From contig CAZILL010000001.1 in the NCBI GenBank assembly GCA_964540105.1, positions 315,649 through 379,648 of the forward strand: a stretch of 64,000 nucleotides of DNA, given 5' to 3'. The notes below the pieces were generated by a model. The model made no database searches. It saw only the letters and a list, made by a program, of their open reading frames with translations, and was not told the origin of the DNA. How positions within the stretch are numbered: position 1 is the first letter of the stretch; the number at the start of each line of letters is the position of its first letter. The position numbers were made by a program, and so were the translations under genes. The DNA comes from an uncultured Ignavibacteriales bacterium (lineage in GTDB: Bacteria; Zixibacteria; MSB-5A5; GN15; FEB-12). Positions 19,133 through 39,444 of this stretch are shown piece by piece.

Positions 19133-20079
19133 GATCCTGCCTTTCGCTCAGATTCATTGTCGGTTTGTTCGCGAACGAGAGTCTCGCGTTCGGCGTTAAT
19201 GATCTCGGCATACTCAAGCGGGTGATGGTGTTTCATTTCGCTTTCGGTGAGCGTGCCGCGCCACCAGACCCAACTCATCGGGAAGACTTCGGGATTGAAG
19301 TGAACATTGTAGAAGTGCCAGACAATGATGGCCAGCGTGGCCAGAAGCCCTTCGTCGGAGTGGGCTTCCCGAGCGATATCAAAGATATCTTTCGCAAAGT
19401 TCTCCTTGAACCACAGGATCAGCCCCGACCCGATCATGACTACCATGCCCCAGTAGACCGCCCAGTAGTCGAATTTTTCGATGAACGAAAAGCGCCCAAA
19501 TTTCGGTCCCGAGGTTTTTCGACCGAGATAGTACATGATGGTCTGGAACGCGTCAACGGCGTCGCGTGGTCGCGGGATCATCAGGAAGAAATCGCGCCGC
19601 CCCATCCGGGAGGCAACGATATAGACCAGATGCCACCCTCCGACGATGATCAGTCCCGTGGCGGCGATGCGATGCACGAGCGTGGAGCTTTGCAGTCCTC
19701 CGAAAATATTGATGATGATAAACTTGGAGATGCCAAACGACGGGAACTTGAGCGGAATGCCGGTGATGATCAGGAAGATAACCGACACGAACATGAGCAT
19801 GTGTTGCGCTCGGAAGTTTTTGCCGAAGCGAAGAAATGTCCGCTCGGTGGCGTCGACAATCACCCGGGCCTTTCGAACGCCGAAGCGGGTGACTACTTCA
19901 CTGAACGCGACGTTGGCCTCGAATCGAAGTCGCTCGTTGATTTCAGCGGAGGCTTTGTTGAGCTCATCCGTACTGATTTTGGGATCAATAAGCGGGCGGG
20001 CCGAGTCGATGATGCTCTGAGTTAAGTCATCGACCAGCTGATCACGTTTATGCTGTCGTTCGCGCGTGTTGTCGTCCAT
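19129..20079 (-). CDS. Four-TM b-type cytochrome, FdnI/HydC/PhsC-like
   Basis: The entry motif is RFGKNFRAQH, followed by 4 hydrophobic helices. His residues lie in TM1 (QHML), TM2 (VHRIA...GGWH) and TM4 (VWHFYNVH). There is an N-terminal hydrophilic extension of about 85 aa. Confidence 0.7.
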   Translation of the reverse strand: MDDNTRERQHKRDQLVDDLTQSIIDSARPLIDPKISTDELNKASAEINERLRFEANVAFSEVVTRFGVRKARVIVDATERTFLRFGKNFRAQHMLMFVSVIFLIITGIPLKFPSFGISKFIIINIFGGLQSSTLVHRIAATGLIIVGGWHLVYIVASRMGRRDFFLMIPRPRDAVDAFQTIMYYLGRKTSGPKFGRFSFIEKFDYWAVYWGMVVMIGSGLILWFKENFAKDIFDIAREAHSDEGLLATLAIIVWHFYNVHFNPEVFPMSWVWWRGTLTESEMKHHHPLEYAEIINAERETLVREQTDNESERKAGS

Positions 20080-20082
20080 AGC

Positions 20083-21135
20083 TTACTGTTTGGCGCGAGC
20101 CGCCTTGGCTCTCCGGAAGAGGTCCAGAAGGATGAACAGAAACAATCCGATTAGAGTCGAAATGGTCAGAATGGCAAAGAACTTGGTTATATAGTACAGT
20201 AATCCGGAGTCTTCGCTCTCGGGATCGACGTGGATTTTCCCTGACGCGAACTGGGGCGTAGCTTCGGGATGGCACCCCGCTTTCCCACAGGTTGTGACAA
20301 TATTTCCGGCGTTGATCGACGACTTTGGATCTTCGGCGCGTCGAATGTCGTGAACACCGTGACACGACGCGCAGTTTGCGACAGTCGTGTTTTGCATCAC
20401 CCGGGCGATTCCGTGGAACGAATGCTCATAGGTCGCCGAGCGATCGGTCTTGATGCCGTACTTGGCAACCACACCGACCGGACCGTGACATTTTGTGCAT
20501 GTACCGGCAATATTGGTGGCGGCGACCTGTGATGATGGGTCGTCGGGACGTCGGATATTGTGCTCGCCATGACAGGAGGAGCAATCCGGGGCATCCAGAA
20601 TTCCCTTGGCAAGCGCTGCTCCGTGAACCGACTCGCGATACGTAGCGTAGATTTCTATGTGGCATCGCCCGCACGTCTTCGGGCGGTTCATTTTGAAGAT
20701 CGTTGATTTGGAAGAGTCAGGAGGCAGAACGTCGTGGGTACCGTGACAATCCTGACAGACCGGGGCTTTGGCGTTCCCTTTGATCACTTCCATGCCGTGA
20801 ACCGAATGTTCGTATTGGTCGTAGAGTTCACCTTGAGGGGCGCCAACGGGATTCCCGGAGTAGTGACAACGTTTACAGTTGACCTTCTGTACCTCCTTGT
20901 GCGGAATCGCGACGACATCGATGTGACAGTCGGTGCACGGCCGCGCAGCGTGGGTGGAACCCTTCAGGACGGATTCGTCGACAAACAGACTTACCTTGCG
21001 ACCGGTCAATTCAGTTTTCGAGAAATCGCTTTTCCCATGGCACAACAGGCACTTCTCGACCGCTCTGCCGTCGATCGCGCATGACAATAGCGCGATGAGC
21101 CCAACAGAATACAGGCGCACTCTGAATCGCTGCAT
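20083..21135 (-). CDS. C-terminally anchored multihaem c-type cytochrome (8 CXXCH + 1 CX4CH)
   Basis: It has a signal peptide. Haem sites are CLLCH, CTDCH, CKRCH, CQDCH, CGRCH, CSSCH, CTKCH and CASCH, plus CGKAGCH. A recurring S.HG...C..CHG.H unit is present. The C-terminal TM helix is followed by a basic tail. Confidence 0.85.
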   Translation of the reverse strand: MQRFRVRLYSVGLIALLSCAIDGRAVEKCLLCHGKSDFSKTELTGRKVSLFVDESVLKGSTHAARPCTDCHIDVVAIPHKEVQKVNCKRCHYSGNPVGAPQGELYDQYEHSVHGMEVIKGNAKAPVCQDCHGTHDVLPPDSSKSTIFKMNRPKTCGRCHIEIYATYRESVHGAALAKGILDAPDCSSCHGEHNIRRPDDPSSQVAATNIAGTCTKCHGPVGVVAKYGIKTDRSATYEHSFHGIARVMQNTTVANCASCHGVHDIRRAEDPKSSINAGNIVTTCGKAGCHPEATPQFASGKIHVDPESEDSGLLYYITKFFAILTISTLIGLFLFILLDLFRRAKAARAKQ

Positions 21136-21140
21136 GCCGC

Positions 21141-22337
21141 CTATGCCACCCTCTTGATGCGTCGCCGGTATTCGAGCACACGGTATGTGATGAAGCCGAG
21201 GATCAGGATCGAGATGAACCAGATATAGAACTTACGAACGTAGAACTGCCCGCCGGAACTCGGCTCGGTGGCCGAACTGTGCACGGTTCCCTTGGCGAAA
21301 TCGGCCGGAAGGTCCTGATGACACTGGCCGCAGGTCGTCTCCACATTTGCAGTGTTGATCATCGAGCGAGGATCGGTCTGTGGGTATATATTGTGAACGC
21401 CGTGGCAGGATGCGCAATTCGCAACCCGCTTGTCCCCGAGTTCTCCGGCCGCTCCGTGAAATGACTCCTTGAATGTTCCGATCCGATCGGATTTGAGACC
21501 GTACTTGGCAACAATCTTCTCCGAGGCATGACAGTCCGAACAGGTCCTCGACACACTGGTTGTAAAGACACGCGATGTTGGATCCAGATGCGCCTTGATG
21601 TCATGCTCACCATGGCAATTGGTGCAGGTCGGAGAATCAAGAACTCCTTTGTCCAGCGCCACTCCGTGCACCGATTCGGAATAGAGTTTGGCAATATCAC
21701 CATGACACTTAGCACAGGTGGATGCGATGTGAGTCTTGTAGATAGGACTCCCCGGCTGGTCGGCCGGGAGAAAAGAATGGCTGCCATGACAGTCGACACA
21801 GGCCGGCGCGCCTGCTTTTCCGTCGACCATGAGAGCCCGGCCATGAATCGAGTTCTCATACGCTTTGATCACGGTCGGTTTGGGCAGATTTGCGACCTGC
21901 TCGGTAAGGTTCTGGTCTTCATGACAGGCGACGCAAATCTTCACTGAATTCTTGTGATTCGTATGTGCGTTAGGATTCGCGATCGCCAGCACATCGTGCC
22001 CGCCGTGACAGGTCACGCACGTTGGGATTCTCTCAATGTTTGCCTTCCGGCCGGCCACGTGTGGCGACTGGTTGTATCCCTCTGCTTCTGCAGCATGGCA
22101 CTGACCGCAGAAGACGACTTTCGTTCCTTTGTGATTTTTCGCCGGATCTACCGTGTGGCATTCAGTACAAGGCAAGGAAGCATGAATCGAACCCTTCAGC
22201 ACAGACGTATCGACGACGACAGCTTTCGATAGTCCCTTGGGTCGCCCCTGTCCGTGACAGGTAAGGCATCGGTCATCCGGCGCTGGGGCAGCGGTCGCCA
22301 GCAAGAGCACAATTGCCGCGACATAAAAAGGATTCAT
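21141..22337 (-). CDS. C-terminally anchored undecahaem c-type cytochrome
   Basis: I chose the ATG at 22337, which is preceded by AAGGAA and gives the signal peptide MNPFYVAAIVLLLATAAPA. There are 11 CXXCH motifs. A C-terminal TM helix (FYIWFISILILGFITYRVL) is followed by a basic tail. Confidence 0.85.
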   Translation of the reverse strand: MNPFYVAAIVLLLATAAPAPDDRCLTCHGQGRPKGLSKAVVVDTSVLKGSIHASLPCTECHTVDPAKNHKGTKVVFCGQCHAAEAEGYNQSPHVAGRKANIERIPTCVTCHGGHDVLAIANPNAHTNHKNSVKICVACHEDQNLTEQVANLPKPTVIKAYENSIHGRALMVDGKAGAPACVDCHGSHSFLPADQPGSPIYKTHIASTCAKCHGDIAKLYSESVHGVALDKGVLDSPTCTNCHGEHDIKAHLDPTSRVFTTSVSRTCSDCHASEKIVAKYGLKSDRIGTFKESFHGAAGELGDKRVANCASCHGVHNIYPQTDPRSMINTANVETTCGQCHQDLPADFAKGTVHSSATEPSSGGQFYVRKFYIWFISILILGFITYRVLEYRRRIKRVA

Positions 22338-22375
22338 AACACCATTCCTTGTTAGTTTTTTCACAAACTCCCCTA

Positions 22376-22403
22376 AATATATCGATATAGATTTGTAACG
22401 CAA
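22376..22403 (-). promoter_or_regulatory. Sigma70-like promoter candidate for the cytochrome operon (TTGCGT-N16-TATATT)
   Basis: Read on the minus strand, TTGCGT lies at 22403-22398 and TATATT at 22381-22376, about 40 nt upstream of the 22337 start. It overlaps a 10-bp palindrome, ATATCGATAT. Confidence 0.3.
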
Positions 22404-22465
22404 CAGGATTCTCTGGAGTCGCCTGTCTTTATTGCTGATTTCCTGCGCCGTGAGGGCGGGTGAAC

Positions 22466-23155
22466 CTACTTGTTGCCGTTACCGTTTAGGTCAATCTGGC
22501 CATCTTTGAGGCGAACGATGCGAGTGGTCTGCTTGGCGATATTGGCGTCGTGCGTGATAATGATGATCGTCTTACCCGAATTCCAGAGCTCGTAGAATAA
22601 CTTGACAATCTCTCCACCCGACTTGCTGTCCAGATTGCCGGTTGGCTCATCGGCCAGAATGATGTCCGGTTCGTTGGCCAGGGCGCGCGCAATGGCTACC
22701 CGTTGCATCTCACCGCCCGACATTTCCGTGGGCTTGTTGTTGACCTTGTCGCTCAGCCCGACCCGCATGAGCAGCTCCATAATCCGATCGCGACGTTTAC
22801 GAGCGTTGGTGCGGGCGAAGAGCAGTGGCAGCTCGACGTTCTCATAGGCTGTGGCATAGGGAAGCAGGTTGAACGCCTGAAACACAAACCCGATCCGCTG
22901 ATTTCGGATGTCGGCAAGCTGGTTTGGACTCAGCGTGTTGACCAGACTCCCGTCGAGACGGTATTCTCCCTCGGATGGGATATCGAGGCAGCCGATGATA
23001 TTCATCAGTGTTGATTTCCCCGAACCTGACGGACCGACGACGGCGATCAGTTCACCACGTTTGACCTCGAAGTCGACCCCTTTGAGAGCCTGGAAGGGAA
23101 CTTTGCCCGTCAGGTAGTTCTTCTCGACTCGCTTCATATCGATGATAGTGTTCAT
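22466..23155 (-). CDS. ABC transporter ATP-binding protein, MacB/LolD-type
   Basis: Walker [10 protein letters not shown], signature MSGGEMQR and Walker [14 protein letters not shown] preferred the ATG at 23155 over the GTG at 23167 because of its spacing to GAGGTGG. Confidence 0.9.
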
Positions 23156-26968: not shown

Positions 26969-28783
26969 TCAGGTCTTTTGTGCCAGCCTCACGAACGTAT
27001 CGACCTGCGACAGCGAGCGATTTACGGCGTCGTTCCAGAACTCTTCTTTCGTCAGATCAACGCCGAGGTGTTTCAACGCGACGTCTTCAGTTGACATACG
27101 ACCGCTATCTTCCAATAGGGCACGGTAGCGGGAAGCAAACGACGATCCTTCTCTCTTAGCGCGATCGAACACGCCCCCGGCAAACAGGTAGCCGAAGGTA
27201 TAGGGGAAGTTGTAGAACGGCTGGTCGGTCATGAAGAAATGCAGCTTGGAGCACCAAAACAGGGGATGATAGCCGGATTCGTCGAGCAGGCTTCCGTAGG
27301 CCTTTCGCTGGGCCTCGATCATGAGTGCATTTAGTCGATCCTTGCCGACAATCCCGTTGCGGCGTTCTTCATAGAATGATTGATCAAACAGATACCGGCA
27401 GTGAATGTCAGTGAAGAAGACATATGCCTGCTGGAGGATCTGATCGACCAGCATTAGCTTCTGCTTCGGGTCAGACGTTTGCCCAAGCGCGGCATCGTTG
27501 ACGAGCGTCTCGCTGAAGATCGAGGCGGTCTCGGCCAAGGTCATCGGGTAGAACTTGGAAAAATAGGGAACCTCGCGCAGCGCATAGGTGTGGTAGGCGT
27601 GACCCAATTCATGCGCCAGCGTCAGCAGGTTCTCATAGGTACCCGCGTAGGTCATGAAAATACGGCTCTGCTTGAAAGTGGGCAGGTAGGTGCAGAACCC
27701 GCCGGCCGCTTTGCCAGAGCGATCCTCAGCCTCGATCCAGCGTTGGTCGATGGCCGTCTGATAGAAATCGGCCATGTGCGGCGAAAAGGTTCGGACATTG
27801 TCAATAATGAATGACGCCGCTTCGTCATAGGGATACTTCCTGTCGACGTGTCCGCAGGCGGCAAATTCGTCATACCAACGGAACTTATCGATCCCCAGAA
27901 GTTTCTTCTTGGCTTCGACGTAGGGAGCGAGGCGGCCGCTCTCACGACTGATGACATGCCACATGCAGTCAAGCGACGCCTGCGATAAACGGCAGTTCCG
28001 CAGTGGTTCATACAGGAACGAATCCCACCCGCGCCGTTGGTAGAGAGAGAGGCGAAATCCTGCCTGCGCGTTCAATGTCATCGCCGCCAGGTCAGCCCGG
28101 GAACTCCACGACGCGACGATCGTCTCAAAGGCTCGACGTCGTACGGAACGGTCCGGATTATCCATGAAAGTCGCCAGCTGTCCCATCGACATGCTCTTGG
28201 TTTCACCGTTCACTTCGAAGTCGGCGCGAAGATCGCCTGCCATCTTGTCGTAGAGACGATTCCAGGCGTGGTAACCGTTGACGGACAGCTCCAGCACCAG
28301 CGATTCTTGCTCAACCGGGAGTTTACGACGAGCGTGCTCGCGCAGTTCGTTCATGAAGAACATGACGCCGCTCAGTTCAGGTGTGGCCACAAAGGCACCC
28401 CATGATGCCTCGGGCTGTTTGAGAGAGATTGCCTCGAGTCGCGACTTGAGTTGCTCCCACTGCGAAACGAGAAGATCCCCTTCGCCCGTGATACTCTGAG
28501 CTTCGCTGTCATCCACATTCTGCGCGAGCAAGCAACCCGAAAACGAGCTGATAACATGAATCTGCTCAGCCACTGATTGCAGGCGCAGCACAAAGGACAC
28601 CCAGGCGTCACGTTTCGAATCGATCATATCGGGGAGATCAGCAAGGGTCTTGGCCAGGTCGGTAAGATCGGCCTTGGCTCTGGTGCGAAAAGCAAGGAAC
28701 TGCGGGGACTTGCTTCCGCCGGGAAAGAGCGCTTCCAGATCCCAGGCTGGGGCGGGCGGAACTTTGGTCGCGGTGGTCATCAT
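26969..28783 (-). CDS. pepF: M3-family oligoendopeptidase F
   Basis: It is 604 aa with the zinc motif HELGHAYH in an M3B-like context. Confidence 0.8.
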   Translation of the reverse strand: MMTTATKVPPAPAWDLEALFPGGSKSPQFLAFRTRAKADLTDLAKTLADLPDMIDSKRDAWVSFVLRLQSVAEQIHVISSFSGCLLAQNVDDSEAQSITGEGDLLVSQWEQLKSRLEAISLKQPEASWGAFVATPELSGVMFFMNELREHARRKLPVEQESLVLELSVNGYHAWNRLYDKMAGDLRADFEVNGETKSMSMGQLATFMDNPDRSVRRRAFETIVASWSSRADLAAMTLNAQAGFRLSLYQRRGWDSFLYEPLRNCRLSQASLDCMWHVISRESGRLAPYVEAKKKLLGIDKFRWYDEFAACGHVDRKYPYDEAASFIIDNVRTFSPHMADFYQTAIDQRWIEAEDRSGKAAGGFCTYLPTFKQSRIFMTYAGTYENLLTLAHELGHAYHTYALREVPYFSKFYPMTLAETASIFSETLVNDAALGQTSDPKQKLMLVDQILQQAYVFFTDIHCRYLFDQSFYEERRNGIVGKDRLNALMIEAQRKAYGSLLDESGYHPLFWCSKLHFFMTDQPFYNFPYTFGYLFAGGVFDRAKREGSSFASRYRALLEDSGRMSTEDVALKHLGVDLTKEEFWNDAVNRSLSQVDTFVRLAQKT

Positions 28784-28855
28784 AAACTCCTGAACGAAAT
28801 ACGGTACTACTTGGAACGAAAGATAGGGTCAGCTGACCCCAGAAACAAGAGCTTC

Positions 28856-29209
28856 ATGGGTATTTTGTCACTCGTTGATGTCAGCCGTACGCTATATATT
28901 TCGTGTAGTGCGATTATGATTGGGAATACTGGACAGGATGATGAACCGCTGGAGTATCATATTGACGGAACCCTCGACCTGCATCAGTTTTCGCCACATC
29001 AAACACGGGCGATTGTCACCGAGTACATCGCCGCTTGTCTGGAACGCAGACTGTTCACCCTGAGGATTATCCACGGCAAGGGGATCGGCGTTCAACGTGA
29101 GATTGTCCGGTCGCTCCTTGAAAAGCATCCCGATGTGATCTCGATTCGTCACGAAGAAGGAGCCGGCGGGTGGGGGGCGACAATCGTCGATTTGAAACGC
29201 CCCCGCTAA
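28856..29209 (+). CDS. Smr (small MutS-related) domain protein
   Basis: Smr motifs LDLHQ....A and RIIHGKGIG. The start is uncertain: ATG 28856 or ATG 28916. The longer ORF from 28577 runs antisense into pepF and was discarded. Confidence 0.65.
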   Translation: MGILSLVDVSRTLYISCSAIMIGNTGQDDEPLEYHIDGTLDLHQFSPHQTRAIVTEYIAACLERRLFTLRIIHGKGIGVQREIVRSLLEKHPDVISIRHEEGAGGWGATIVDLKRPR

Positions 29210-29220
29210 CGCCGGAAACA

Positions 29221-29255
29221 AAAAGCCCCGTATCTCGACGGGGCTTTTCGCTTTT
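29221..29255. terminator. Bidirectional rho-independent terminator
   Basis: The stem is GCCCCG (29225-29230) paired with CGGGGC (29239-29244). It is flanked by AAAA on the left and TTTTCGCTTTTC on the right. It lies between the convergent Smr gene and the giant gene. Confidence 0.6.
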
Positions 29256-29268
29256 CAGAGGGTGGTTG

Positions 29269-32200
29269 CTACTTGAGCAAGACCATCTTCTTGGTGGCGC
29301 TGAAACCACCTGACGTCAGTCGATACAGGTAGACACCTGAAGCGTGTCTACTGGCATCCCACTGAATCTTGTAATAGCCGGCGTCGGCTTTCTCGTTAGA
29401 CCAACTATTGACCTCTTGTCCGAGAACATTGTACACCACGAGGCGCCACGATCCCGCCGCGGGCAGGGCGAATTCGATCGTGGTCATCGGATTGAACGGA
29501 TTGGGATAGTTCTGCGACAGCGAATAGTGATCGGGCAGAGTCGAAACGGTCGTTTTCATAACCGCCCCGTCGAAACTTCCCAGCTCGACCGACTTCACCG
29601 ATTTGGCCCCATTCAGATACAGGACCGGCCCACTGCCAAGCGAACTCTTTCCCTTACTATTGTAGACGAGGACACGAGTCTCTTTGCCGTCATAATTGCT
29701 GAGCAATTCCATATCCGAGGCTTCTGGGTGAAGTTCGGGATGAACTTCCCCTTCAAGGATAATGAACATCGCGCCAATTCGCGTATTCGATTTGCTAACC
29801 TCGAGGATTCCGTCGCTGACATCAACCGTCGCCTCAAAGGTCACGCTCGGATCGAGTTTTGGAAGCGCGCTGGCGTCGCCGACGAGAACGCGAATCAGAT
29901 ACACCAGGTCGGCCACGCCGAGCGGCATTCCGTCGCCGTTGACATCAGAAGCGGCGATCGCGCCCTGCTGCTGCTGGGCGTTGCCAAAGGCGCTGAGACC
30001 ATGTATGAAGTAGTTCGTGAACATTACCACGTCGGCCACTTCGTACGCGATGCCATTGAGATTCAGATCACCGCGAGCGTCGATAGCCGTATCGCAGATG
30101 ATATCCACGCCGCCGTTGGTGAAGTCCACACAGCGCTGAGGACCGGGCTTTCCAAAGCCGGGGTTGGTCAGGCAGATATCCGGAATCCCCAGACTTCCGG
30201 GAAGACCGTACCCGTGGTTGGTGATATTGTTCAATTCGAAGTCAAAGACCTTGCGTTCCACCCAGAGAGTGTCGCCGTTCTTTGATGACAGCGAGTTGTC
30301 GTTGCACGTGGTCCAGTAGAACCAGACCGGCGCAAACAGGCAATTGAGATTGCGGTCGTTGGAGACCAGAAAATCGATCGTCGCCAGCGAACCGACCTGA
30401 CCGTCAAAGAAACAGCCCGGATGATAGGCGCCGTTGTTGGTTTCAGCTAAACCGACAATCCGAATCAGGCCGGCTGGGCATGTCGCGCAGTTGCCGTTGG
30501 GTCCAAAGCGATATGAGAAATATTCCCAACCGCAACCCTGGAACAATGAGCCCGGGTTGACAATACTCGGCGTGAGCGCCGATACATCGTAGGCGATCAG
30601 GAAATCAAAACCGCCCAACTTCTTGCCGGAACCGTTCAGGAAGATGTTCACCAGGTTGTGCTGACCCTGATACACTTTGTGGGTTTTCTCAATCTGAACG
30701 TGAATGCACTCGTCGACTACAACCTGAATGCAGACGGTATCGGTTTTGGTCAGGCCGCACATGTCTGTAGCCGTGATATAGAGGCAGTAGTGACCGGTGC
30801 TGTCAGCATTGAAACAGACCTGGTGGGTGATCGGATTGTAGGAACCGATCGGGGTGACGCCGTAGTTGCTCAGGTTCCCGTCGACGTCATGGATGTCCAC
30901 GTCGAAACAGAGCTGTCCGACCTGCTCCAGGTATGCCGTGAAGTCGGGTGGTCCAAGCACTACCGGCGCGCTATTGGAGGTAACTATAATGGCCGTTGTA
31001 TCGTACTTGACTGCCCCGCAGGCGTCGGTCGCTTTCACGACAAATGCGTATTGTGTAGTTTGGCCGCTGGTGAACGGCGCCTGATAGCAGATCTGGTGCG
31101 TCGTCGGATTGTAGGTCCCAAGAGGTGAAATCAGCTCGACAGTCGATAGGTTATTGTCGGGATCGCTCGCGCTTACATTCCAGCACAGGGTTGTACTGTT
31201 GCAAAGGAAGTAGGTAGTATCTTTACCCGCGCTGACGATTGGCGCTGAGTTGATCCGGAAATTAACCGTGAAGGAATCCTTACACACCGAACCGCATAGG
31301 TCGAGGCACTGGATGACGACCTTGCGAGTTTCAGTCACCGATGGGGTGTAGACCCAGAAACCATTTACGATCGAACCCGGACCGGTCACGATTTCGCAAT
31401 GATCGAAATTGTTGTTCGGGTCAGTCGCGCTGACCGCCATGCTGACCTGAGTGGGAACACACTGGAAAAAGGTCGTGTCGTTCGGAAGATTGCAGATCGG
31501 AGCGCTGTTCATGGTGACTATGATCTTGGCGGTGTCGACCGCAATCGCACCACATTGATCCTTCGCCTGCAAGACGAACGTAAAGGTTCCCGCTGAGCTG
31601 GGTGTAAAGCAGATTGTTGTCCCATTATAGGTTCCGGGGCCGACAATCAGCTTCGTGCTGTCGAGATTACCGTCCGGATCACTGCTTGAAACAGGCCAGC
31701 AGATCTGTGTGGGTGAGCACTGGAACAAAGTCTGGTCTGAACCGGCATTGACTACCGGTGGATGATTCATTGAAACCACAACCGCCAGCGTATCGTGGCC
31801 GGTGGCACCACAGGCATCGGTGGCGCCAATCGTAAACACGTAGGTGCCGGCGGTCGGCGGCGTGAAACAGACCTTGTTCTGTGCCGTGTCGACCGCCCCG
31901 ATTCCGGACAGGAGCGCTTCAAGCGTCACATTGTTCTGCAGATCGGTGACCGTGTACGGCAGACAAACCTGCTGACTACTGCAGACAAATACACTGTAGG
32001 GGTTGTACGCACTCGTGAAGAGAATAGCCGGCGCCGTATTCATCGCGACGTTGTACGTGATACTGGCCGTGTCAGCCGCACCGCACGAGTCCTGCACTTT
32101 GACGACCGCGGAGTAGAATCCAGCCGCAGAAGTCGTGAAGCACCAGAGACCGCCAACTGTTAGCGTTCCGTCGCCGGACAGTTTGGTCCAGACCAGGGAA

Positions 32201-35200
32201 CCGCCATTGGGGTCAGTCGCGAGGAACTGGTAGCAAACCTGACCGGCCACGCACAAGAAGGTGTCGCGTACGGCAGGGTTTGGATTAGTCGCTACCGGCG
32301 GCGCATTGAGGGTGACATCGACCGTCACGAAGCATGAGTCGCTGCCACACGAGGTCGTGGCCTTAATCTTGAGGACATAATGCCCCGCGGTGTCGGCTGG
32401 GAAGCAGAGGTCCCCTGACGCGTAGGTTCCGATCGGCGAGACCGTTACCGTTGATCCCTGTCCGACGACCCCGACCGGCACACAGATCGGTCCGGCTTGA
32501 CAGAGGAATTTTGACTGCGGCGCCGGACAGGTGAGCTGTGGAGCACCGCCGATGTTAACAGAAAATGTCAACTGGCAGGTATCAGCGCCGCAGGTTGTAC
32601 TGGCAATGACTGTAATCTGGTACGTACCGGTGGTGTCGGCCTGGAAACAGAGAGTGCCGCCGCTATACGTGCCGTACGAGAGGGTGAGGGTTGCGGAAGG
32701 CGGGGTGATAGTCAGCTGCTGACACACTTGCCCCGGACCGCAAAGTGAAGCCGCGATCGGTCCAGTAGGACAGGCAATATCGGCCAAATCGCCGAAGGTC
32801 ACCGTTACTTTCGCGGTATCGAGCCCAATCGCTCCACATGGATCAATCGTCTTGATGATGAATTGATACACGCCCGCCGCGGTAGGGGTGAAACAGACTT
32901 TGTTGGCGGCCGTGTCAATGGCGCCATAGCCGGACACCATATACTCACTGAGGCCACTGGAGCCATTCGGGTCAGTCGCACTATAAGTGAGACAAATCTC
33001 CTGGGGCAGGCACAAGGCAAGAGTCGTGTCGTTGCCGAACGCGATTGTGGGCGACGCGTTGAGCGTCACGGCGATCAGCGTTGTGTCGGACTTGGTAGCT
33101 CCACAGGCATCGGTAGCCGTCAGGATAAACTGATACGTTCCCGAGGCGGTCGGCGTGAAACAGATCGATGTCCCGTCATATGAGCCCGGTCCGGTAAGAG
33201 CGCAATCGATCAGATTGTTGTCGACGTCCTGGCACGACGCCGGCCAGCAGATCTGGGCAGCCGTACACTGGAACAACGTCTGGTCAGGTCCCGCACTGGC
33301 GGTCGGAGCCGAGTTCAACGTCACGACCACACTGCTCGTATCCTGATCAGTAGCTCCGCACGCGTCTTCGATCTTGATGATGAACGTATAGGTGCCACTG
33401 GCCGGAGGCGTGAAACAGACCCGTGAGGCCAGCGTATCAAGCGTGCCGCTTCCGGATACCAACGAAACCGTACGCCCCTGAGGGGCGTCAGGATCGGACG
33501 CCGCGTAATCAAGGCAAATCTGCGCGCTCGCACACAAGAAGACTGGAGCGTGCTGCGCAAAGGCAATGGTCGGAGGGCGGTTAATGTTGATCTGAACATT
33601 GAACGACGATTCGCAGAATGCGCCGCAAGAGTCTTCACACCGCAGTTGCACGGTCACCAGCTGGCTGGCGCTGGGTGTGTAGCACCAGTTTCCACCGCTC
33701 AGTGTCCCAGGACCGGCGATAATCTGGCATGATTTCAGATTGCCATCGGCATCAGTCGCGCTTGCCGGCAAGCATATTGCGGTCGGAACACATTGCCAGA
33801 TGGTCGTATCTCTCGGAACGGCGCAGACCGGCGCGCTATTCAAAGTCACGGTGATAACGGCCGTATCAAGCCCGATCGCTCCGCACGCATCGGTCGCCTC
33901 CATGATGAAGCTGAAGGTTCCCGAAACGGTCGGCGTGAAGCAGATTTGTCCTGCACTGTAGCTGCCAACTCCGGAAATGAGTGAACAGCCGGCCAGGTTG
34001 CCGTTGGCGTCTGTACATGAGACCGGCCAGCAGATTTGAGTCGGCACGCACTGAAACAGAGTCTGGTTAGGTCCCGCATGTGCCACAGGCGGTATGTTCA
34101 GCGTGTAGTAAATGACTACAGTGTCATAGTCGGTCAGCCCGCAGGCGTCGGTCGCTTTAAGCACGAATTCGTAGTTGAGAGTGCCCGTTGGTGTAAAGCA
34201 GATCTGCCCCGCACTGTACGTTCCCGGGCCGGTGACCAATTGCACCGAGGTCAGATTGCCGTCGATATCCGTCGCTCCCGCCGGCCAACAGATTGGCAGA
34301 GCGGAACATTGGAAGACTGTCTGATCGGGACCGGCATTCGCCACCGGCGCATTGTCCAGCTGCACCGTGACATTGATCGTATCCAGTTTAGTGGCCCCGC
34401 ACGCATCGGTGGCAGAAGCAATGAACTGGAGCGTGCCGGTGCCAGCAGGGGTGAAACAGAGTTGATTCGGGTTTGTGCTGACGGTTCCGATTCCGGCCAG
34501 AAGCGCGACGCCGGTGATGTTGTTGTTGGCGTCACTCAATGTAAATGGCAGACAAATCGGGCCGGAGGCGCACATAAAGACGGTTGTGTCGTTGCCGAGC
34601 GACAGCGACGGGGCTGTGTTCAGCGTAACATTATATGTTAGGGAGACTGTATCGGCCTTGCCGCATGAATCGCTTACCTTCGCTAACACGGCATACGCTC
34701 CCGCGGTCGAGGCAGTAAAGCACCAGAGACCGCTGCCGCTCACCGTCCCGCTTCCAGACAGGCGGGTCCACGTCAAGGTGCCGCCGTTCACATCAGTCGC
34801 CGAAAACTGCCGGCAGATCTGCGCTGCCCCGCAGATGAAGGTATCGACTGGTGTGGGCGGGTCAACAGCAACCGGCTTCGAATCGATAGTTACATCAACG
34901 ATGAGGTTGCACGAATCGGTTCCGCAGGGGGTGCTGGCCTTTACCTTCAGAACATAGTGTCCCGAGCTGTCAGCTGGGAAGCAGACATTGCCCGATGAAA
35001 ACGAACCGATCGGGGTGACCGTCCAGGTCGCGATCGGCGCTCCCCCGACGGGTATGCAGACCTGTCCGGTCTGACAGATGAACAGATTCTGCGATCCGGG
35101 GCAAACCAAGTCCGGGGGTTGGCTGATGGTCACAACGAAAGTCAACGTGCACGATGACGAACCACACGGAACACTCGCGTTGAGATGAATCACATATGTA

Positions 35201-38055
35201 CCCGATGTGTCGGCCTGAAAGCAAAGCTGGCCGGCAGAAAATGTACCAAATGACGTCGTGATCGTCGCCGAAGGCGGGGTGATCGTGACAGCCTGGCAGA
35301 CCGGTCCCGCCGCACAGAGGGTCAGGTTGATTGGTTGGGTCGGACAAGTGATCTGGGCCCCCTGACCGAAGGTCACCGTGACATTGATCGTGTCCCGATC
35401 AGATGCACCACACGAATCAGTTACAGCGCCGACAAACTGATACGTTCCAGCCCCAGAAGGAGTGAAACAGATCTTCTTGGTCGTCGTGTCGAGCGTTCCA
35501 TAGCCAGAGATCATAGAAACAACGAGTCTGTTCAGACCCTGAGGGTCGGAAAGCGTGTATGGAAGACAAATCTGCTGCGGCGCACACAATGATAGTGAAC
35601 TGTCGTTGCCGAACGCGATCGCGGGTGGGCCGTTGAGCGAAATGTTATAAGTCAGGTTGGTCGTGTCGGCCTTGCCGCATGAATCCGTGACCGAAACGCT
35701 GATCGAATAGCTGCCGGCGCCACTGGGGGTGAAGCACCAATTGCCTGATGTGGTCACCGTGCCCGATCCGCTCAGCTTGTTCCACGTGAGCGGTCCGCCG
35801 TTGACATCGCTCGCGGCAAACTGGTAGCAGACCTGCTGCGGGTCGCACTGGAAGAGCGAGACCGGCGTGATCGGGTTGACCGCCACCGGCGCCGAGTTCA
35901 TCGTGATCGTATAGGAAATCGAGGTCGTATCTTTCGTCCCGCACGAGTCCGCGACGGTCACCACCGCACTGAATAGTCCGGGTCCCGTCGGGGTGAAGCA
36001 GAATTGACCGGCAGAGGTAATGCTCCCCGAACCCGAGATCTTGGACCAGGTAAGCGTCCCGCCATCAGCATCGGTGGCGACAAACTGGTAGCACAGCTGG
36101 GTCGGAGCGCACATGTACTTCGTCACGGGCGGAGGATCAACGGCTACTGGTCGGCTGTTCAACGACACTGTGACATTGATGGTATCCTGATCGACAAGAC
36201 CGCACGAGTCGGTTGCCTTCAGAATGAATGTTGAGACACCGGAAACACTCGGCGTGAAACAGACCTGGCCACTCCCCAACGTCCCTGGGCCGGAGATCAG
36301 CTGAGATGTCTTCAGATTACCGTCGGGATCAGAGAATGTGACCGGGAAACAGATGGCCGCAGAGGTACAAAGCACCCGACTGAAGTCGGCCCCGGCATTG
36401 ACGACCGGCGGACGATTCACGATCACAGTTACATGCGTAGTGTCCGCTCCGATGTGACCGCAGTGGTCGTGGGCGGAAGCGATGATAGTGTAAACACCTG
36501 AGGTGTCAGCCTGGAAACAGGTGTCGCGAGTGCTGGGATCCGATGAGCTGCGAGCAGCGACGCCATCGATTTCAATATCACCGCTCAGACATTTGATCTC
36601 GATCTGATTATACGTGATACCGTCGGGCAGATTGATGTTCACGCCCCCCCTACCGGGATTCTGATCATTGCCGCTGATAGTGCGCACACAGGCATAGGCC
36701 GGAATACCATGACGCTTGAAAAGAAACTCTACGGTCCCGCCATTTCGGCTGCTTGAAAACATCACAAGATCTTCGTCGTCATCATCGCACGAGTTCTCGT
36801 CGTCTGAAAACTCCAGCACCGTTCGGTTCCCCGGGCCGAATTCGACCGTCCCATCACCGTTGCCGCCGTCGGGGCCTCCGGCTCCGGTGAGCGTGAATTT
36901 CAGGCCGGTTGGAGCGCCGACAAGCTGATCGGCAGAAAGCGGGGAGTTGAACCCACGCGGAAATGACCCGTAGTCAGCCACACGAGTGGCGAACTTATAG
37001 CCGGGGAGGGTCACACTCAGACCAGACTGGGTATTGATGGAAGGCACAAAGTCGCCAGAATGCAGGAGCTTCTTGCCGGAAGCGCCGCCGCCCACCTGCC
37101 ACACAAGTCCCCCAAGCTGGTTGATCTGTCTGATCTGATCGAACGAGAGCGCCGGACCGACAGCCATAATGGAATGATCATCGTCATCTTCGACGTCACA
37201 ATCCTGGTCATCAATCTGCATCGGCAGGCAGATCTGGCCGGGTGCGCAGAGACGGATGGTCGTATCCGGGGGAAGAGTCACTACCGGCGCATGGCCGTAG
37301 TTCCCAATCTCTATGCCCTGACATTCATTGGACGCAGATAGCTCTGTTCTTCTGGAAGGATCGCATGCGCTGTTGGGAGGGGAAGATAGTGCGGGCTTGT
37401 CCTCGCCTCTGAACTTGATTCGAATCGAGTAGTGCCCGGGGCTATTAGGGAGAGTCAAGCTCGCACAAGCCAGTCCGTTGGCGTCGGTTATCGCGGAGTC
37501 ATCGGCCACCTGACTGATATTGTTCCCGCAGTTGCCGCTATTGATAAAGAAGAGGATCTCGCGGCCCGGAAGCGGTGCATACGTGCTATTGCCACAATTC
37601 TCGGACAAGTAACCGCAAACATTCAGCACCTGACCCGGACAGAGGCTGTCCCCATGGAAATCTTGTGAAAACTCAAGCTTGGTATTGCAGTCCGTGAAGA
37701 TTGTCGTGGACACGATCCCCGAACTCAAGCCGGTGGCTGTAACCCGAAAGGTCTGGTCGACCCCGTCACCGGGGACTATCCAGAATGTCATGAACGCGCC
37801 GCTGGGGTCGCAGGTCACATTCCAGGGGGGCCGAGTATCGCCAACACCCGGATTGAAGACGTTCTTGACTTGGACAGTGACCATCTCATTGGGCCAATAA
37901 GCAGAGCCGGTTATGAATACCGTATCGCCGGGGGCATAATCCGCGGTGTCTGTCTTGACGATGTACGCATTGAGCTGAGCTGACTTAACGGGAACAGCGA
38001 GCGCCGCTACGCACAACAGGCACGCAACAGCAGCGAATAGAGAACGAAGTTTCAT
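29269..38055 (-). CDS. Giant (2928 aa) secreted repeat protein: Ig-like N-terminal domains, 22 tandem Cys-rich ~86-aa repeats, cohesin-like and dockerin-like modules, T9SS C-terminal sorting domain
   Basis: This is a single uninterrupted ORF with the signal peptide MKLRSLFAAVACLLCVAALAVPVKSA. The repeat consensus is N.(A/P)P....(G.D)....C....IC....A.D.(D/N)GNL......G.G......CFTP...G.Y.F...A.D.CGA...DT..V.V.L. The C-terminus is described in the sub-features below. Confidence 0.9.
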   Translation of the reverse strand: MKLRSLFAAVACLLCVAALAVPVKSAQLNAYIVKTDTADYAPGDTVFITGSAYWPNEMVTVQVKNVFNPGVGDTRPPWNVTCDPSGAFMTFWIVPGDGVDQTFRVTATGLSSGIVSTTIFTDCNTKLEFSQDFHGDSLCPGQVLNVCGYLSENCGNSTYAPLPGREILFFINSGNCGNNISQVADDSAITDANGLACASLTLPNSPGHYSIRIKFRGEDKPALSSPPNSACDPSRRTELSASNECQGIEIGNYGHAPVVTLPPDTTIRLCAPGQICLPMQIDDQDCDVEDDDDHSIMAVGPALSFDQIRQINQLGGLVWQVGGGASGKKLLHSGDFVPSINTQSGLSVTLPGYKFATRVADYGSFPRGFNSPLSADQLVGAPTGLKFTLTGAGGPDGGNGDGTVEFGPGNRTVLEFSDDENSCDDDDEDLVMFSSSRNGGTVEFLFKRHGIPAYACVRTISGNDQNPGRGGVNINLPDGITYNQIEIKCLSGDIEIDGVAARSSSDPSTRDTCFQADTSGVYTIIASAHDHCGHIGADTTHVTVIVNRPPVVNAGADFSRVLCTSAAICFPVTFSDPDGNLKTSQLISGPGTLGSGQVCFTPSVSGVSTFILKATDSCGLVDQDTINVTVSLNSRPVAVDPPPVTKYMCAPTQLCYQFVATDADGGTLTWSKISGSGSITSAGQFCFTPTGPGLFSAVVTVADSCGTKDTTSISYTITMNSAPVAVNPITPVSLFQCDPQQVCYQFAASDVNGGPLTWNKLSGSGTVTTSGNWCFTPSGAGSYSISVSVTDSCGKADTTNLTYNISLNGPPAIAFGNDSSLSLCAPQQICLPYTLSDPQGLNRLVVSMISGYGTLDTTTKKICFTPSGAGTYQFVGAVTDSCGASDRDTINVTVTFGQGAQITCPTQPINLTLCAAGPVCQAVTITPPSATITTSFGTFSAGQLCFQADTSGTYVIHLNASVPCGSSSCTLTFVVTISQPPDLVCPGSQNLFICQTGQVCIPVGGAPIATWTVTPIGSFSSGNVCFPADSSGHYVLKVKASTPCGTDSCNLIVDVTIDSKPVAVDPPTPVDTFICGAAQICRQFSATDVNGGTLTWTRLSGSGTVSGSGLWCFTASTAGAYAVLAKVSDSCGKADTVSLTYNVTLNTAPSLSLGNDTTVFMCASGPICLPFTLSDANNNITGVALLAGIGTVSTNPNQLCFTPAGTGTLQFIASATDACGATKLDTINVTVQLDNAPVANAGPDQTVFQCSALPICWPAGATDIDGNLTSVQLVTGPGTYSAGQICFTPTGTLNYEFVLKATDACGLTDYDTVVIYYTLNIPPVAHAGPNQTLFQCVPTQICWPVSCTDANGNLAGCSLISGVGSYSAGQICFTPTVSGTFSFIMEATDACGAIGLDTAVITVTLNSAPVCAVPRDTTIWQCVPTAICLPASATDADGNLKSCQIIAGPGTLSGGNWCYTPSASQLVTVQLRCEDSCGAFCESSFNVQININRPPTIAFAQHAPVFLCASAQICLDYAASDPDAPQGRTVSLVSGSGTLDTLASRVCFTPPASGTYTFIIKIEDACGATDQDTSSVVVTLNSAPTASAGPDQTLFQCTAAQICWPASCQDVDNNLIDCALTGPGSYDGTSICFTPTASGTYQFILTATDACGATKSDTTLIAVTLNASPTIAFGNDTTLALCLPQEICLTYSATDPNGSSGLSEYMVSGYGAIDTAANKVCFTPTAAGVYQFIIKTIDPCGAIGLDTAKVTVTFGDLADIACPTGPIAASLCGPGQVCQQLTITPPSATLTLSYGTYSGGTLCFQADTTGTYQITVIASTTCGADTCQLTFSVNIGGAPQLTCPAPQSKFLCQAGPICVPVGVVGQGSTVTVSPIGTYASGDLCFPADTAGHYVLKIKATTSCGSDSCFVTVDVTLNAPPVATNPNPAVRDTFLCVAGQVCYQFLATDPNGGSLVWTKLSGDGTLTVGGLWCFTTSAAGFYSAVVKVQDSCGAADTASITYNVAMNTAPAILFTSAYNPYSVFVCSSQQVCLPYTVTDLQNNVTLEALLSGIGAVDTAQNKVCFTPPTAGTYVFTIGATDACGATGHDTLAVVVSMNHPPVVNAGSDQTLFQCSPTQICWPVSSSDPDGNLDSTKLIVGPGTYNGTTICFTPSSAGTFTFVLQAKDQCGAIAVDTAKIIVTMNSAPICNLPNDTTFFQCVPTQVSMAVSATDPNNNFDHCEIVTGPGSIVNGFWVYTPSVTETRKVVIQCLDLCGSVCKDSFTVNFRINSAPIVSAGKDTTYFLCNSTTLCWNVSASDPDNNLSTVELISPLGTYNPTTHQICYQAPFTSGQTTQYAFVVKATDACGAVKYDTTAIIVTSNSAPVVLGPPDFTAYLEQVGQLCFDVDIHDVDGNLSNYGVTPIGSYNPITHQVCFNADSTGHYCLYITATDMCGLTKTDTVCIQVVVDECIHVQIEKTHKVYQGQHNLVNIFLNGSGKKLGGFDFLIAYDVSALTPSIVNPGSLFQGCGWEYFSYRFGPNGNCATCPAGLIRIVGLAETNNGAYHPGCFFDGQVGSLATIDFLVSNDRNLNCLFAPVWFYWTTCNDNSLSSKNGDTLWVERKVFDFELNNITNHGYGLPGSLGIPDICLTNPGFGKPGPQRCVDFTNGGVDIICDTAIDARGDLNLNGIAYEVADVVMFTNYFIHGLSAFGNAQQQQGAIAASDVNGDGMPLGVADLVYLIRVLVGDASALPKLDPSVTFEATVDVSDGILEVSKSNTRIGAMFIILEGEVHPELHPEASDMELLSNYDGKETRVLVYNSKGKSSLGSGPVLYLNGAKSVKSVELGSFDGAVMKTTVSTLPDHYSLSQNYPNPFNPMTTIEFALPAAGSWRLVVYNVLGQEVNSWSNEKADAGYYKIQWDASRHASGVYLYRLTSGGFSATKKMVLLK
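29272..29529 (-). other. Type IX secretion system C-terminal sorting domain (aa ~2843-2928)
   Basis: LSQNYPNPFNPMTTIEFALP...WRLVVYNVLGQEV...GVYLYRLTSGGFSATKKMVLLK matches the Por-secretion-tail pattern. Confidence 0.8.
29881..30714 (-). other. Cohesin-like module followed by dockerin-like double EF-hand segment (aa ~2448-2725)
   Basis: The cohesin-like signature is LGGFDFLIAYDVSALT. Two dockerin-type Ca-binding repeats follow: DLNLNGIAYEVADVVMFTNYF and DVNGDGMPLGVADLVYLIRVLVG. Confidence 0.6.
30715..36417 (-). repeat. Tandem array of 22 divergent ~80-92-aa domain repeats (aa 547-2447 of the giant protein)
   Basis: I set the repeat boundaries by hand from the translated sequence. Every unit keeps at least 4 Cys (..C....(I/V)C.. 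and ..CF(T/Q/P).. ..D.CG..), except repeats 20 and 22, which have lost some. Similarity is visible at protein level only, not as exact DNA repeats. Confidence 0.85.
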
Positions 38056-38357
38056 GGGGCCGTCCTATATAGACACAACATTTTTCTCGAGAATAAAAAA
38101 GAGGGGAGAGTCGCCGCCATGCTATCCGCGCTATCCGCGCAACACGTCGCAAATAGCTGCGTGCGATGTGACATGGATGATACGACTATCGTTGAATGAC
38201 TTTGATACGAAGCGAACCGTGAGCAAATGCCCATGTTCTCTCCCTGTGCTTACCTAATTTATATCAGTCCAGTATTGAGTGCACCAATCGAGGTATTAGT
38301 CCTGTTGTCGAACCCGCGAGCACCTGAGTCCGAGTGCACTACAACTATCTACTGGTA

Positions 38358-38386
38358 ATGATAACCTGCGGACTTAGGTCTGTCAA
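38358..38386 (-). promoter_or_regulatory. Near-consensus sigma70-like promoter (TTGACA-N17-TATCAT) about 300 nt upstream of the giant gene
   Basis: Read on the minus strand, TTGACA lies at 38386-38381 and TATCAT at 38363-38358 with a 17-nt spacer. It sits in the 528-nt thyX/giant-gene spacer. Confidence 0.4.
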
Positions 38387-38583
38387 GGGGAAAACGGCTA
38401 AACAGCAAGGTTTTTTGGAGTTAAGAGGTGAGAGATAGAGTCAGCGCCGGAGATATTGGACATAATAGGTCAATGTATTACTGAATCTCTTGATCGATTT
38501 GTCGGAAACGCTTCAGGTCGCAATGTCAGTCCCCGCGTAACTCGTTGTCTTATAGTGAATACGAATAATCGCTCGACGCGCGG

Positions 38584-39444
38584 CTACTTTGTCTTTAGCC
38601 CCCTGATCTTGTCGGCAAGCTCCGTTGCTTCTCTCTTTGAGAGACCCCGACCGACAAGCGCCTCAATGCCCAGATCAACTCCGGTGAAATGCGCAGCCAG
38701 GATTTCCATCTCCGGCCCACTGAAACTCAGCGAATTGACGTAGTAATCGATAAATGCTTCGTAAGCGAGGGGACAGACTCCTCTGACCATATCCGCCATA
38801 ATCACGGCATAGGCGCGAATCTCCTTCTGGGCATGTGAGTCCAGACGTAACCTCAGGAAATGAAACAGGTTGTGGAGATCTATCTTCCAGTACCATTCCG
38901 TATAGAGCGACAAGGGGAGGTTTATTCGTGCCAACTCACGCGCGATATTGTCACCGAGGGCGCCCTGATACTCGGCGTACGCTCTTTCCTGCAGCTGTTG
39001 GAGCGATTCGAGGAAGGCGGTCCTGATTGATTCCGGAAGTTCCTCTTCCGAGCGCCCCTGCTTGTTTTGCTGCGACTGAGTCTGAATGTCCTCCAACTTC
39101 GGCCGATAGAATTCATCCTTCATAACCGAATAGCGACCCGAGTACTCATTGACATTCGCTGAGCGGTGGCGAATCCATTGCCGCGCGACAAAAATCGGAA
39201 GCTTGACATGGAATTTGAATTCAACCATCTCGAATGGGGTCGTGTGACGATGCCGCATGAGATACCGAATTAGTCCGCGATCTTCCTGGACTTTCTTTGT
39301 TCCGTCGCCGTAACTGACCCGAGCCGCCTGAACAATCGCATCGTCATTGCCCATGTAGTCAACAAGACGAACAAAGCCATGATCCAGGACCTTGAATTCT
39401 CTATCGAGCAGACTGTCGGCCACTGCTGAATGCGCTTTTCCCAT
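38584..39444 (-). CDS. thyX: FAD-dependent thymidylate synthase
   Basis: The ThyX signature RHRSANVNEYSGRYS (RHRxxSxxxxSxR) is present, and overall length and motifs are typical of ThyX. Confidence 0.9.
   Translation of the reverse strand: MGKAHSAVADSLLDREFKVLDHGFVRLVDYMGNDDAIVQAARVSYGDGTKKVQEDRGLIRYLMRHRHTTPFEMVEFKFHVKLPIFVARQWIRHRSANVNEYSGRYSVMKDEFYRPKLEDIQTQSQQNKQGRSEEELPESIRTAFLESLQQLQERAYAEYQGALGDNIARELARINLPLSLYTEWYWKIDLHNLFHFLRLRLDSHAQKEIRAYAVIMADMVRGVCPLAYEAFIDYYVNSLSFSGPEMEILAAHFTGVDLGIEALVGRGLSKREATELADKIRGLKTK

Follow-up and report, generated by a model that had tools for sequence, protein, structure and literature searches.

Giant repeat proteins are common and are usually filed as 'Ig-like, function unknown', and cohesin-dockerin docking is known from the cellulosomes of Gram-positive bacteria. 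Here, we describe a giant gene from a 64,000-nucleotide stretch of DNA (the window) of contig CAZILL010000001.1 (assembly GCA_964540105.1, positions 315,649 to 379,648), which derives from an uncultured Ignavibacteriales bacterium placed by GTDB in the Zixibacteria. The gene lies on the minus strand at 29269..38055 of the window, and its product combines three known kinds of system: the fibrillar adhesin, the cargo of a type IX secretion system (T9SS) and the cohesin-dockerin system. What is new here is a 23rd, split repeat, the inference of disulfides between neighbouring repeats and an unannotated, phylum-wide C-terminal cassette. We consider it probable that the protein is a fibre which is rigid, covalently stapled and anchored at the surface, binds at its tip and docks through its base.

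Fibrillar RTX adhesins, such as MpIBP of Marinomonas primoryensis and the RTX adhesin of Aeromonas hydrophila, resemble the giant protein in several respects: they have a long stalk of beta-sandwich repeats, Ca2+ at the junctions that stiffens this stalk, and distal ligand-binding domains that emerge from split domains (PMC7493085, PMC12077191). The giant protein likewise pairs a long repeat stalk (23 repeats) with a surface-anchor signal, the T9SS sorting domain. Its polarity is reversed, however, since RTX adhesins use type I secretion and are held by their N-terminus, whereas a T9SS cargo is held by its C-terminus. Furthermore, RTX adhesin repeats are devoid of cysteines, whereas the giant protein appears to add a disulfide at nearly every junction, and RTX adhesins carry neither cohesin nor dockerin. 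The PKD-like domains of the clostridial collagenases ColG and ColH bind one Ca2+ near their N-terminus, which aligns the linker with the domain axis; its ligands are the linker Asn and the next carbonyl, both Asp residues of DxDG and the Asp that precedes the F-G turn, and the axial ligand Asp844 of ColH s2b adjoins the N-terminal linker (PMC4356367). Our repeats keep this ligand set (linker Asn, DxDG, Asp before the F-G turn), whereas the collagenase domains are without any of the four core cysteines and occur singly or in pairs rather than as 23-domain rods.

At its base, the giant protein compares with cellulosomal scaffoldins (C. thermocellum CipA and Acetivibrio cellulolyticus ScaB; PDB 4fl4, 5nrm and 3ul4), which share the cohesin fold (TM-score up to 0.81), likewise have a dockerin with duplicated Ca loops and carry both modules on one secreted chain; relatives with several cohesins also exist here. 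Scaffoldins are anchored by SLH domains or sortase, whereas the giant protein comes from a diderm and is predicted to be anchored through T9SS. The cassette family further departs from scaffoldins in having mostly a single cohesin, about 65 aa of extra Cys-rich loops and a 13-residue dockerin loop pattern, with no carbohydrate-binding module and no enzymes seen among its passengers. Ca. Stygibacter (Cloacimonadota), which is uncultured and likewise belongs to the FCB group, has been proposed to have a cohesin/dockerin system whose scaffoldin is anchored through T9SS. This system combines cohesin, dockerin and T9SS C-terminal domain as here; there, cohesins and dockerins sit on separate proteins, with the dockerins on enzymes, whereas here one fixed cassette ends non-enzymatic giants (PMC8542988). 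Finally, the giant adhesin of Mobiluncus mulieris, a bacterium linked to bacterial vaginosis, is also reported to be a giant surface protein (51 Ig-like domains) whose repeats are covalently cross-linked for strength (PMC10619420). Its cross-links (ester, isopeptide, disulfide and thioester) are reported per domain, and the repeats belong to another family, whereas the bond proposed here would join neighbours.

Domain architecture and repeat stalk

The reading frame is uninterrupted from an ATG start over 2928 codons, with only 3 more open codons upstream of the ATG, so that the single 2928-aa frame reported in the initial annotation is intact. Without signal peptide and sorting domain, the mature chain has a mass of about 293 kDa and an isoelectric point of 4.3. 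The entire protein contains 136 cysteines (4.64%, against a median of 0.98% across the 28 other long open reading frames (ORFs) of the window), and 107 of them fall within aa 547-2447, close to the hundred or so first estimated for the repeats. G+C content and skew are unremarkable. From profile searches and AlphaFold2 (AF2) models, with confidence given as predicted local distance difference test (pLDDT) values, we derived the following layout:

37981..38055, minus strand: putative Sec signal peptide, aa 1-25, read by eye from the sequence (basic MKLR start, hydrophobic core, VKSA/Q cleavage site; no lipobox)
37693..37980, minus strand: N-terminal beta-sandwich domain 1, aa 26-121; seven strands in the AF2 model, pLDDT mostly 78-93
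37297..37692, minus strand: N-terminal beta-sandwich domain 2, aa 122-253; AF2 strands, weakly filamin-Ig-like, 7 conserved Cys
37189..37296, minus strand: N-terminal part of split repeat R0, aa 254-289; strands A, A' and B with C1 and C2, found by the self-profile
36586..37188, minus strand: inserted domain of about 200 aa within R0, aa 290-490; mostly beta, AF2 pLDDT about 70-90
36424..36585, minus strand: C-terminal part of split repeat R0, aa 491-544; strands E, F and G with C3 and C4, found by the self-profile
30721..36423, minus strand: 22 full PKD/Big_9-like repeats R1-R22, aa 545-2445; four core Cys, Ca2+ ligands and Asn linker
33589..35640, minus strand: first copy of a higher-order block, R4-R11, aa 806-1489; repeat types c-a-a-b-c-d-d-e
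31258..33066, minus strand: second copy of the block, R14-R20, aa 1664-2266; repeat types c-a-a-b-c-d-e
30085..30720, minus strand: cohesin-fold domain, aa 2446-2657, by AF2 and Foldseek; enlarged by Cys-rich loops
29866..30084, minus strand: divergent dockerin, aa 2658-2730; two segments of Ca loop plus helix, GDLNLNGIAYEVAD... and SDVNGDGMPLGVAD...
29521..29865, minus strand: 'post' beta-sandwich, aa 2731-2845; AF2 pLDDT 80-95, delimited by sub-profiles, constant companion of the dockerin
29272..29520, minus strand: T9SS type A sorting domain, aa 2846-2928; PF18962 and TIGR04183

This layout retains every part proposed at the outset from the sequence, namely a signal peptide, two Ig-like N-terminal domains (beta-sandwiches in the AF2 model, with weak filamin-Ig matches), 22 tandem repeats with four conserved cysteines, cohesin-like and dockerin-like modules and a T9SS sorting domain; it adds aa 254-546, which had been passed over and correspond to a split repeat carrying an insert of about 200 aa.

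A repeat profile built from one repeat and iterated on the giant protein itself (the self-profile) recovers exactly 22 full repeats at aa 550-2445, each with a core of about 82 aa and a linker of 5-6 aa. The 23rd repeat, R0, is split into aa 257-289, which match profile positions 1-33 (E 2.4e-11), and aa 491-544, which match positions 29-82 (E 1.6e-15). Pairwise identity between repeats ranges from 19 to 62%, with four conserved Cys columns. R4-R8 pair with R14-R18 at 51-62% identity, R10 with R19 at 58% and R11 with R20 at 47%; this pairing of R4-R11 with R14-R20 points to an old duplication of a block of 7-8 repeats within the array. Against Pfam, the repeats score 138.2 bits for Big_9 (cut-off 23.6, 10 stretches), 74.5 for K319L-like_PKD (cut-off 27) and 31.9 for PKD (cut-off 23.5). 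The PKD/K319L side of the original suggestion is thereby retained and extended to Big_9, and an HYR identity, its other side, was rejected, as the Pfam scan gave no HYR match. NF012211 of NCBIfam (tandem-95 repeat protein) reached 50.9 bits, below its 90-bit cut-off. Among solved sequences, the profile best matches PKD-like domains from clostridial collagenases, along with the PKD domains of KIAA0319L. The profile scan as a whole assigned no functionally characterised adhesin family, so that this refuting condition, named at the outset, did not arise.

As a side observation, the tripeptide D-[ST]-[AILVMT], which we take to be the O-glycosylation motif of Bacteroidota, occurs in 36 copies protein-wide against 14.6 ± 3.5 in shuffles, mostly at one spot near repeat ends; this excess may reflect structural conservation only.

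In total, 2431 repeats of 363 family proteins were aligned to the repeat profile. In the alignment to the ColG/ColH PKD-like domains, which match the repeats at E 0.003-0.006, the repeat motif TDPDG corresponds to DxDG and TDxCG to VxDxxG. The linker Asn is 94% conserved among the family repeats, the linker measures 5 aa at 1772 junctions, and 1961 repeats have all three acidic Ca2+ ligands, whereas 263 have none of them. Most repeats thus possess the PKD-type set, namely linker Asn, DxDG and an Asp preceding the F-G turn. Those without the Ca2+ site (types like R5, R6, R15 and R16) are the same ones that carry an extra Cys pair at columns 5 and 76, located at the same domain end as the Ca2+ site.

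The distal tip was modelled as aa 24-633 (model m7d51bcd12352, mean pLDDT 77.9) and comprises two beta-sandwich domains, the split repeat with its mostly-beta insert of about 200 aa and then R1. A profile of domain 2 (A2) matches filamin Ig repeats at E 0.012-0.03, and Pfam Filamin matches 4 of 13 relatives; a Pfam scan of aa 1-547 of the giant protein gave no match. The inserted domain is flanked by acidic clusters containing Cys and had no match in Pfam or among PDB sequences, and a fold search with the tip model returned only generic macroglobulin/complement Ig arrays (TM about 0.15, root-mean-square deviation about 41 Å). The split repeat and its insert are kept at 40-49% identity in most paralogue classes; the first two domains occur in a subset only. 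By analogy with RTX adhesins, in which domains borne by split repeats are reported to bind ligands (PMC12077191), the tip with the inserted domain is likely the ligand-binding end, with the insert as a candidate binding module.

Cysteine co-variation and repeat junctions

Four Cys columns are filled in 89-98% of the aligned repeats: C1 (column 14), C2 (column 20), C3 (column 51) and C4 (column 70). C2 and C3 are lost jointly (phi 0.98; 1963 of the 2431 repeats read CCCC and 264 read C..C), and the AF2 model places C2 in strand B and C3 in strand E. Their joint loss indicates a C2-C3 disulfide that joins strands B and E inside each domain.

Within one repeat, C1 and C4 are never lost together, with 128 repeats lacking C1 only, 47 lacking C4 only and none lacking both. 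For contiguous repeats n and n+1, C1(n) and C4(n+1) occur together in 2033 cases and are jointly missing in 8; C1(n) alone is missing in 6 cases, and C4(n+1) alone in none (Fisher 4e-19). All 8 internal losses of C4 follow a repeat without C1 and represent at least 5 different junction types. Toward the ends of the arrays, C1 is missing from the last repeat of 106 of 124 proteins, as it is from R22 of the giant protein, and C4 is missing from the first repeat detected in 34 of 124. With respect to topology, C4 lies two residues past the Asp aligned to the axial ligand Asp844 of ColH s2b, hence at the N-terminal end of the domain, and C1 lies just after strand A', 13 residues before DxDG, at the C-terminal end. 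An intradomain C1-C4 bond was rejected, as the two cysteines are never co-lost and their position at opposite ends of the domain makes it sterically implausible; a bond from C1 of one repeat to C4 of the next fits both features. On this co-variation and topology, we regard an interdomain C1(n)-C4(n+1) disulfide at nearly every junction as highly probable. Half of the core cysteines thus appear to bridge neighbouring domains rather than to staple single ones.

Cysteine counts agree with pairing throughout. Among 2409 distinct repeats, 91% have an even number of cysteines, and extra cysteines come as pairs (columns 5 and 76, 3 and 74, 25 and 35). Of the 134 cysteines of the mature protein, those counted in the head and those counted in R22 plus the cohesin domain would allow full pairing. 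The heavily disulphide-stapled rod imagined from the cysteine content alone is supported and sharpened by these even counts and co-losses, with the bonds themselves predicted from sequence. To our knowledge, a disulfide-closed, tension-proof design of stiff junctions is not known from other bacterial adhesins, and the searchable literature contained nothing on an inter-domain disulfide with a PKD domain. Interdomain disulfides atop Ca2+-stiffened linkers would, if true, represent a distinct way to build a rigid fibre of about 90 nm.

The C-terminal cassette and its relatives

Sub-profiles divide aa 2446-2928 into four parts: a cohesin-like domain, a dockerin-like domain, the 'post' domain and the sorting domain. 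The last of these is assigned by TIGR04183 (44.7 bits, cut-off 23) and PF18962 (37.7-39.9 bits, cut-off 27, aa 2850-2925), and its profile matches the solved sorting domain 8glj_D. An AF2 model of the base, computed from a 44-sequence alignment (mean pLDDT 82.7, predicted template-modelling score (pTM) 0.48), is confident save for the dockerin, with pLDDT mostly 85-97 in the cohesin domain. In Foldseek searches of the PDB, cohesins make up nearly all of the top matches of this domain (E values from 3e-8 to 1e-6, target TM-scores of 0.71-0.81), including clostridial type I cohesins and the Archaeoglobus cohesin, so that it has the nine-stranded jelly-roll cohesin fold in the model. It is about 65 aa larger than the matched cohesins and has eight conserved cysteines. 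Pfam Cohesin matches 12 of the 44 relatives at E < 0.01 (best 5.3e-5); a profile of the domain retrieved cohesins among PDB sequences only at E 0.2-0.3, and a phmmer search of PDB sequences with the C-terminal 481 aa gave no match.

For the dockerin, a profile of 24 diverse segments (A3) has six PDB matches, five of which are dockerins (3ul4_B E 0.0093, 5nrk_B 0.015, 4dh2_B 0.042). Both Ca loops and both helices align to the solved dockerins, which gives the two-segment dockerin layout. Loop positions 1, 3, 5 and 13 are invariant or nearly invariant D/N in the 24 copies, and the loops are one residue longer than the canonical 12. Dockerin_1 matches 3 of the 44 and 4 of the 24 relatives at E < 0.03. 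In hhalign comparisons, the 'post' domain resembled neither the sorting domain nor the cohesin nor the repeats. Neither Pfam nor NCBIfam has a model for the cassette, and the searchable literature neither mentions it nor links Zixibacteria with dockerins or type IX secretion.

A search with the last 483 aa recovered 895 giant relatives; the names, where given, read 'T9SS type A sorting domain-containing', 'VWA domain-containing' or 'Ig-like' protein, in metagenome-assembled genomes of Candidatus Zixiibacteriota. The giant relatives have 13-32 repeats (classes 20, 22, 23, 26, 28, 29 and 32) and always about 480 aa after the last repeat. Longer members (family P0003-P0120) add triplets of repeat types (abc or adc), which suggests that the stalk lengthens in steps of three domains; the same four types precede the cassette in all. 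In a HMMER search of 1.84 billion representatives, the cassette of about 400 aa was found in 1718 clusters at 50% identity (822 below 1e-30), in proteins of 470-3700 aa, and nearly always ends about 80 aa before the C-terminus. Among shorter proteins, there are at least 6388 cassette clusters at 90% identity, for which precomputed Pfam mostly shows the sorting domain only; they come mostly from Zixibacteria, with some from GN15, Calditrichaeota and the FCB group. The passenger domains of the cassette family are of adhesion type (VWA, HYR, He_PIG, PKD), and enzymes were not seen among them. A contig search with a single sequence as query found two loci only.

One cohesin-dockerin-post-sorting-domain unit is present in 321 of the 363 proteins; in about 35, the unit is found two or three times in tandem or there are further cohesins. 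In one of these, four cohesins are followed by dockerin and post, then by a cohesin-dockerin-post unit, a dockerin-post pair and the sorting domain.

It is possible, although we hold this only tentatively, that the Zixibacteria surface represents a phylum-wide undescribed system, in which thousands of cassette-ended T9SS cargoes would chain to each other and to scaffoldin-like proteins, and the giants would be rods with a disulfide and Ca2+ at every junction. The spread of the cassette suggests that cohesin-dockerin docking organises the surface of a whole uncultured diderm phylum, and with a cassette profile, thousands of 'T9SS sorting domain-containing' proteins would be better annotated.

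We also recorded individual relatives of the scaffoldin-like kind. P0002 (L003:10001-15181), P0034, P0121, P0125 and P0128 have two to three tandem units or up to four extra cohesins, and most such proteins end in a T9SS sorting domain. The gene for P0002, which carries three cassettes, is solitary, between an S9 peptidase gene and three sulfatase genes, and no gene cluster was seen around it. Separately, P0110 (2204 aa, on a 9.6 kb contig) is labelled Gemmatimonas aurantiaca in NCBI, and a few more relatives bear the label Acidobacteriota or Candidatus Acidoferrum. Binning or labelling errors are the probable source of these names, but a cultured host of a cassette-bearing protein would be valuable.

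Proposed fibre, competing readings and genomic context

In the fibre that we favour, the protein would be exported through Sec, folded and oxidised in the periplasm and passed through the T9SS, after which the sorting domain would be removed and the C-terminus tethered to the outer membrane, leaving the N-terminus pointing outward. Its body would form a rod of 23 PKD/Big_9-type domains, some 80-100 nm long if each domain spans about 4 nm, with junctions stiffened by the 5-residue Asn linker, the Ca2+ site (Asn, DxDG and the Asp of TDxCG) and the C1(n)-C4(n+1) disulfide. The tip, comprising two Ig-like domains and the insert of the split repeat, would bind a ligand, and the base would most likely connect the rod with further copies of itself, with scaffoldin-like proteins bearing several cohesins or with secreted proteins that carry a dockerin tag, yielding a protein network on the cell surface. 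Binding in trans is favoured by the surplus cohesins and the cohesin-less dockerins of relatives. What the analysis shows is the ORF, its domains and their folds, the co-variation of Cys and Ca ligands and the spread of the cassette. We infer the bonding of the cysteines, the anchoring at the surface, the length of the rod, its adhesion and the binding between cohesin and dockerin, and likewise the role as fibre, adhesin or scaffold.

Several observations weigh against this fibre. For the junctions, the case consists of co-variation and topology; the co-losses are few (8) and relatives are not independent samples, and 6 junctions keep C4(n+1) though C1(n) is missing. At the base, Pfam Cohesin (PF00963) reaches 16.5 bits against a cut-off of 24.1 and covers only profile positions 2-55, and Dockerin_1 (PF00404) reaches 15.1 bits against 22.9. 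On account of these scores, we speak of a cohesin-fold domain and a divergent dockerin rather than of certified Pfam members. AF2 places the three dockerin helices where expected, at a low pLDDT of 39-60. The binding of partners or ligands is argued from sequence and models. Furthermore, the neighbouring genes are housekeeping ones (M3 oligopeptidase, ThyX, M32 carboxypeptidase and a MacB-type efflux system) that offer no hint to function, and none of the RNA runs searched for the giant gene contains it.

A first alternative is that the protein is a display scaffold rather than an adhesin, in which the rod would be a spacer and the cohesin would hold dockerin-tagged secreted enzymes or binding proteins in a cellulosome-like manner. 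This reading overlaps the favoured one and differs in emphasis. The well-supported cohesin fold, the relatives with 2-4 extra cohesins and no matching dockerin, and the T9SS-anchored scaffoldin system proposed in Cloacimonadota (PMC8542988) are all in line with it. However, each 293-kDa protein offers one cohesin only, the passengers of the family are adhesion-type domains (VWA, HYR, He_PIG, PKD) rather than enzymes, and the conserved head and split-repeat insert would be left without a role; we consider a display scaffold rather unlikely.

Also rather improbable is a clasp within the same chain, by which cohesin and dockerin would bind each other to form a rigid basal pedestal, with no intermolecular role. 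The two modules are adjacent with almost no linker, and the fixed cohesin-dockerin-post unit of 321 of the 363 proteins is repeated as a block in the tandem ones, as such a pedestal would lead one to expect. Yet there are proteins with four cohesins followed by one dockerin, and others with dockerin-post and no cohesin, and AF2 predicted no confidently packed unit (low dockerin confidence, pTM 0.48).

The fibre as we propose it further assumes that the cysteines are paired. Instead, they could be free thiols, ligands of metals or minerals, or intermolecular cross-links, for instance in attachment to rock minerals under anoxic conditions. Zixibacteria are often anaerobes, the matching metagenomes come from rock, and multihaem cytochrome genes lie nearby. 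We nevertheless give this reading only a slim chance, since the strict joint losses (C2 with C3, C1(n) with C4(n+1)), the even counts in 91% of repeats and the pairwise arrival of extra cysteines (columns 5/76, 3/74, 25/35) fit covalent pairs, not independent ligands.

Regarding the integrity of the array, four rock-metagenome runs from one study contain all sampled words of the giant gene, and in each of them 28500-38800 is covered by one contig (about 102.6 kb) that shows 0 differences and 0 gaps at 31-80x depth; these are short-read assemblies that may include the sample of origin. TRF found no tandem repeat at the DNA level in the gene, and the order of the 22 repeat types is identical in four proteins (the query and three relatives from other sources). 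Collapse or chimerism of the array is very unlikely, given the lack of a DNA-level repeat and the four contigs that span the gene without differences. That the array is an assembly artefact or the gene dead can be dismissed almost entirely, because, even though short-read assembly is known to be weak at repeat arrays, the repeats are at most 62% identical in protein, the repeat order recurs in three relatives, the frame is intact and all domains are conserved.

In all four runs, several other contigs (0.2-17 kb) share words of 18-35 nt with 29483-29522 and 29738-29962, the parts encoding the sorting domain and the dockerin; these probably belong to other cassette-bearing genes of the same community.

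Upstream of the giant gene lies one promoter-like site:

38358..38386, minus strand: TTGACA-N17-TATCAT, some 300 nt upstream of the start codon, matching 11 of 12 consensus positions

Such sites are no commoner in the region than in shuffles, so this one is to be read as a consensus match only. Downstream of it, a putative 60-codon upstream ORF (38052-38234, minus strand) ends in an ATGA that overlaps the start codon of the giant gene, and an AGGA lies 7 nt ahead of the giant-gene ATG. Elsewhere in the window, the only other Cys-rich products are encoded by three ORFs at 17558-22478 (minus strand; 5.4-5.7% Cys), which are unrelated to the giant protein; the one at 21141-22403, which was scanned against Pfam, is a multihaem cytochrome with CXXCH-type motifs.

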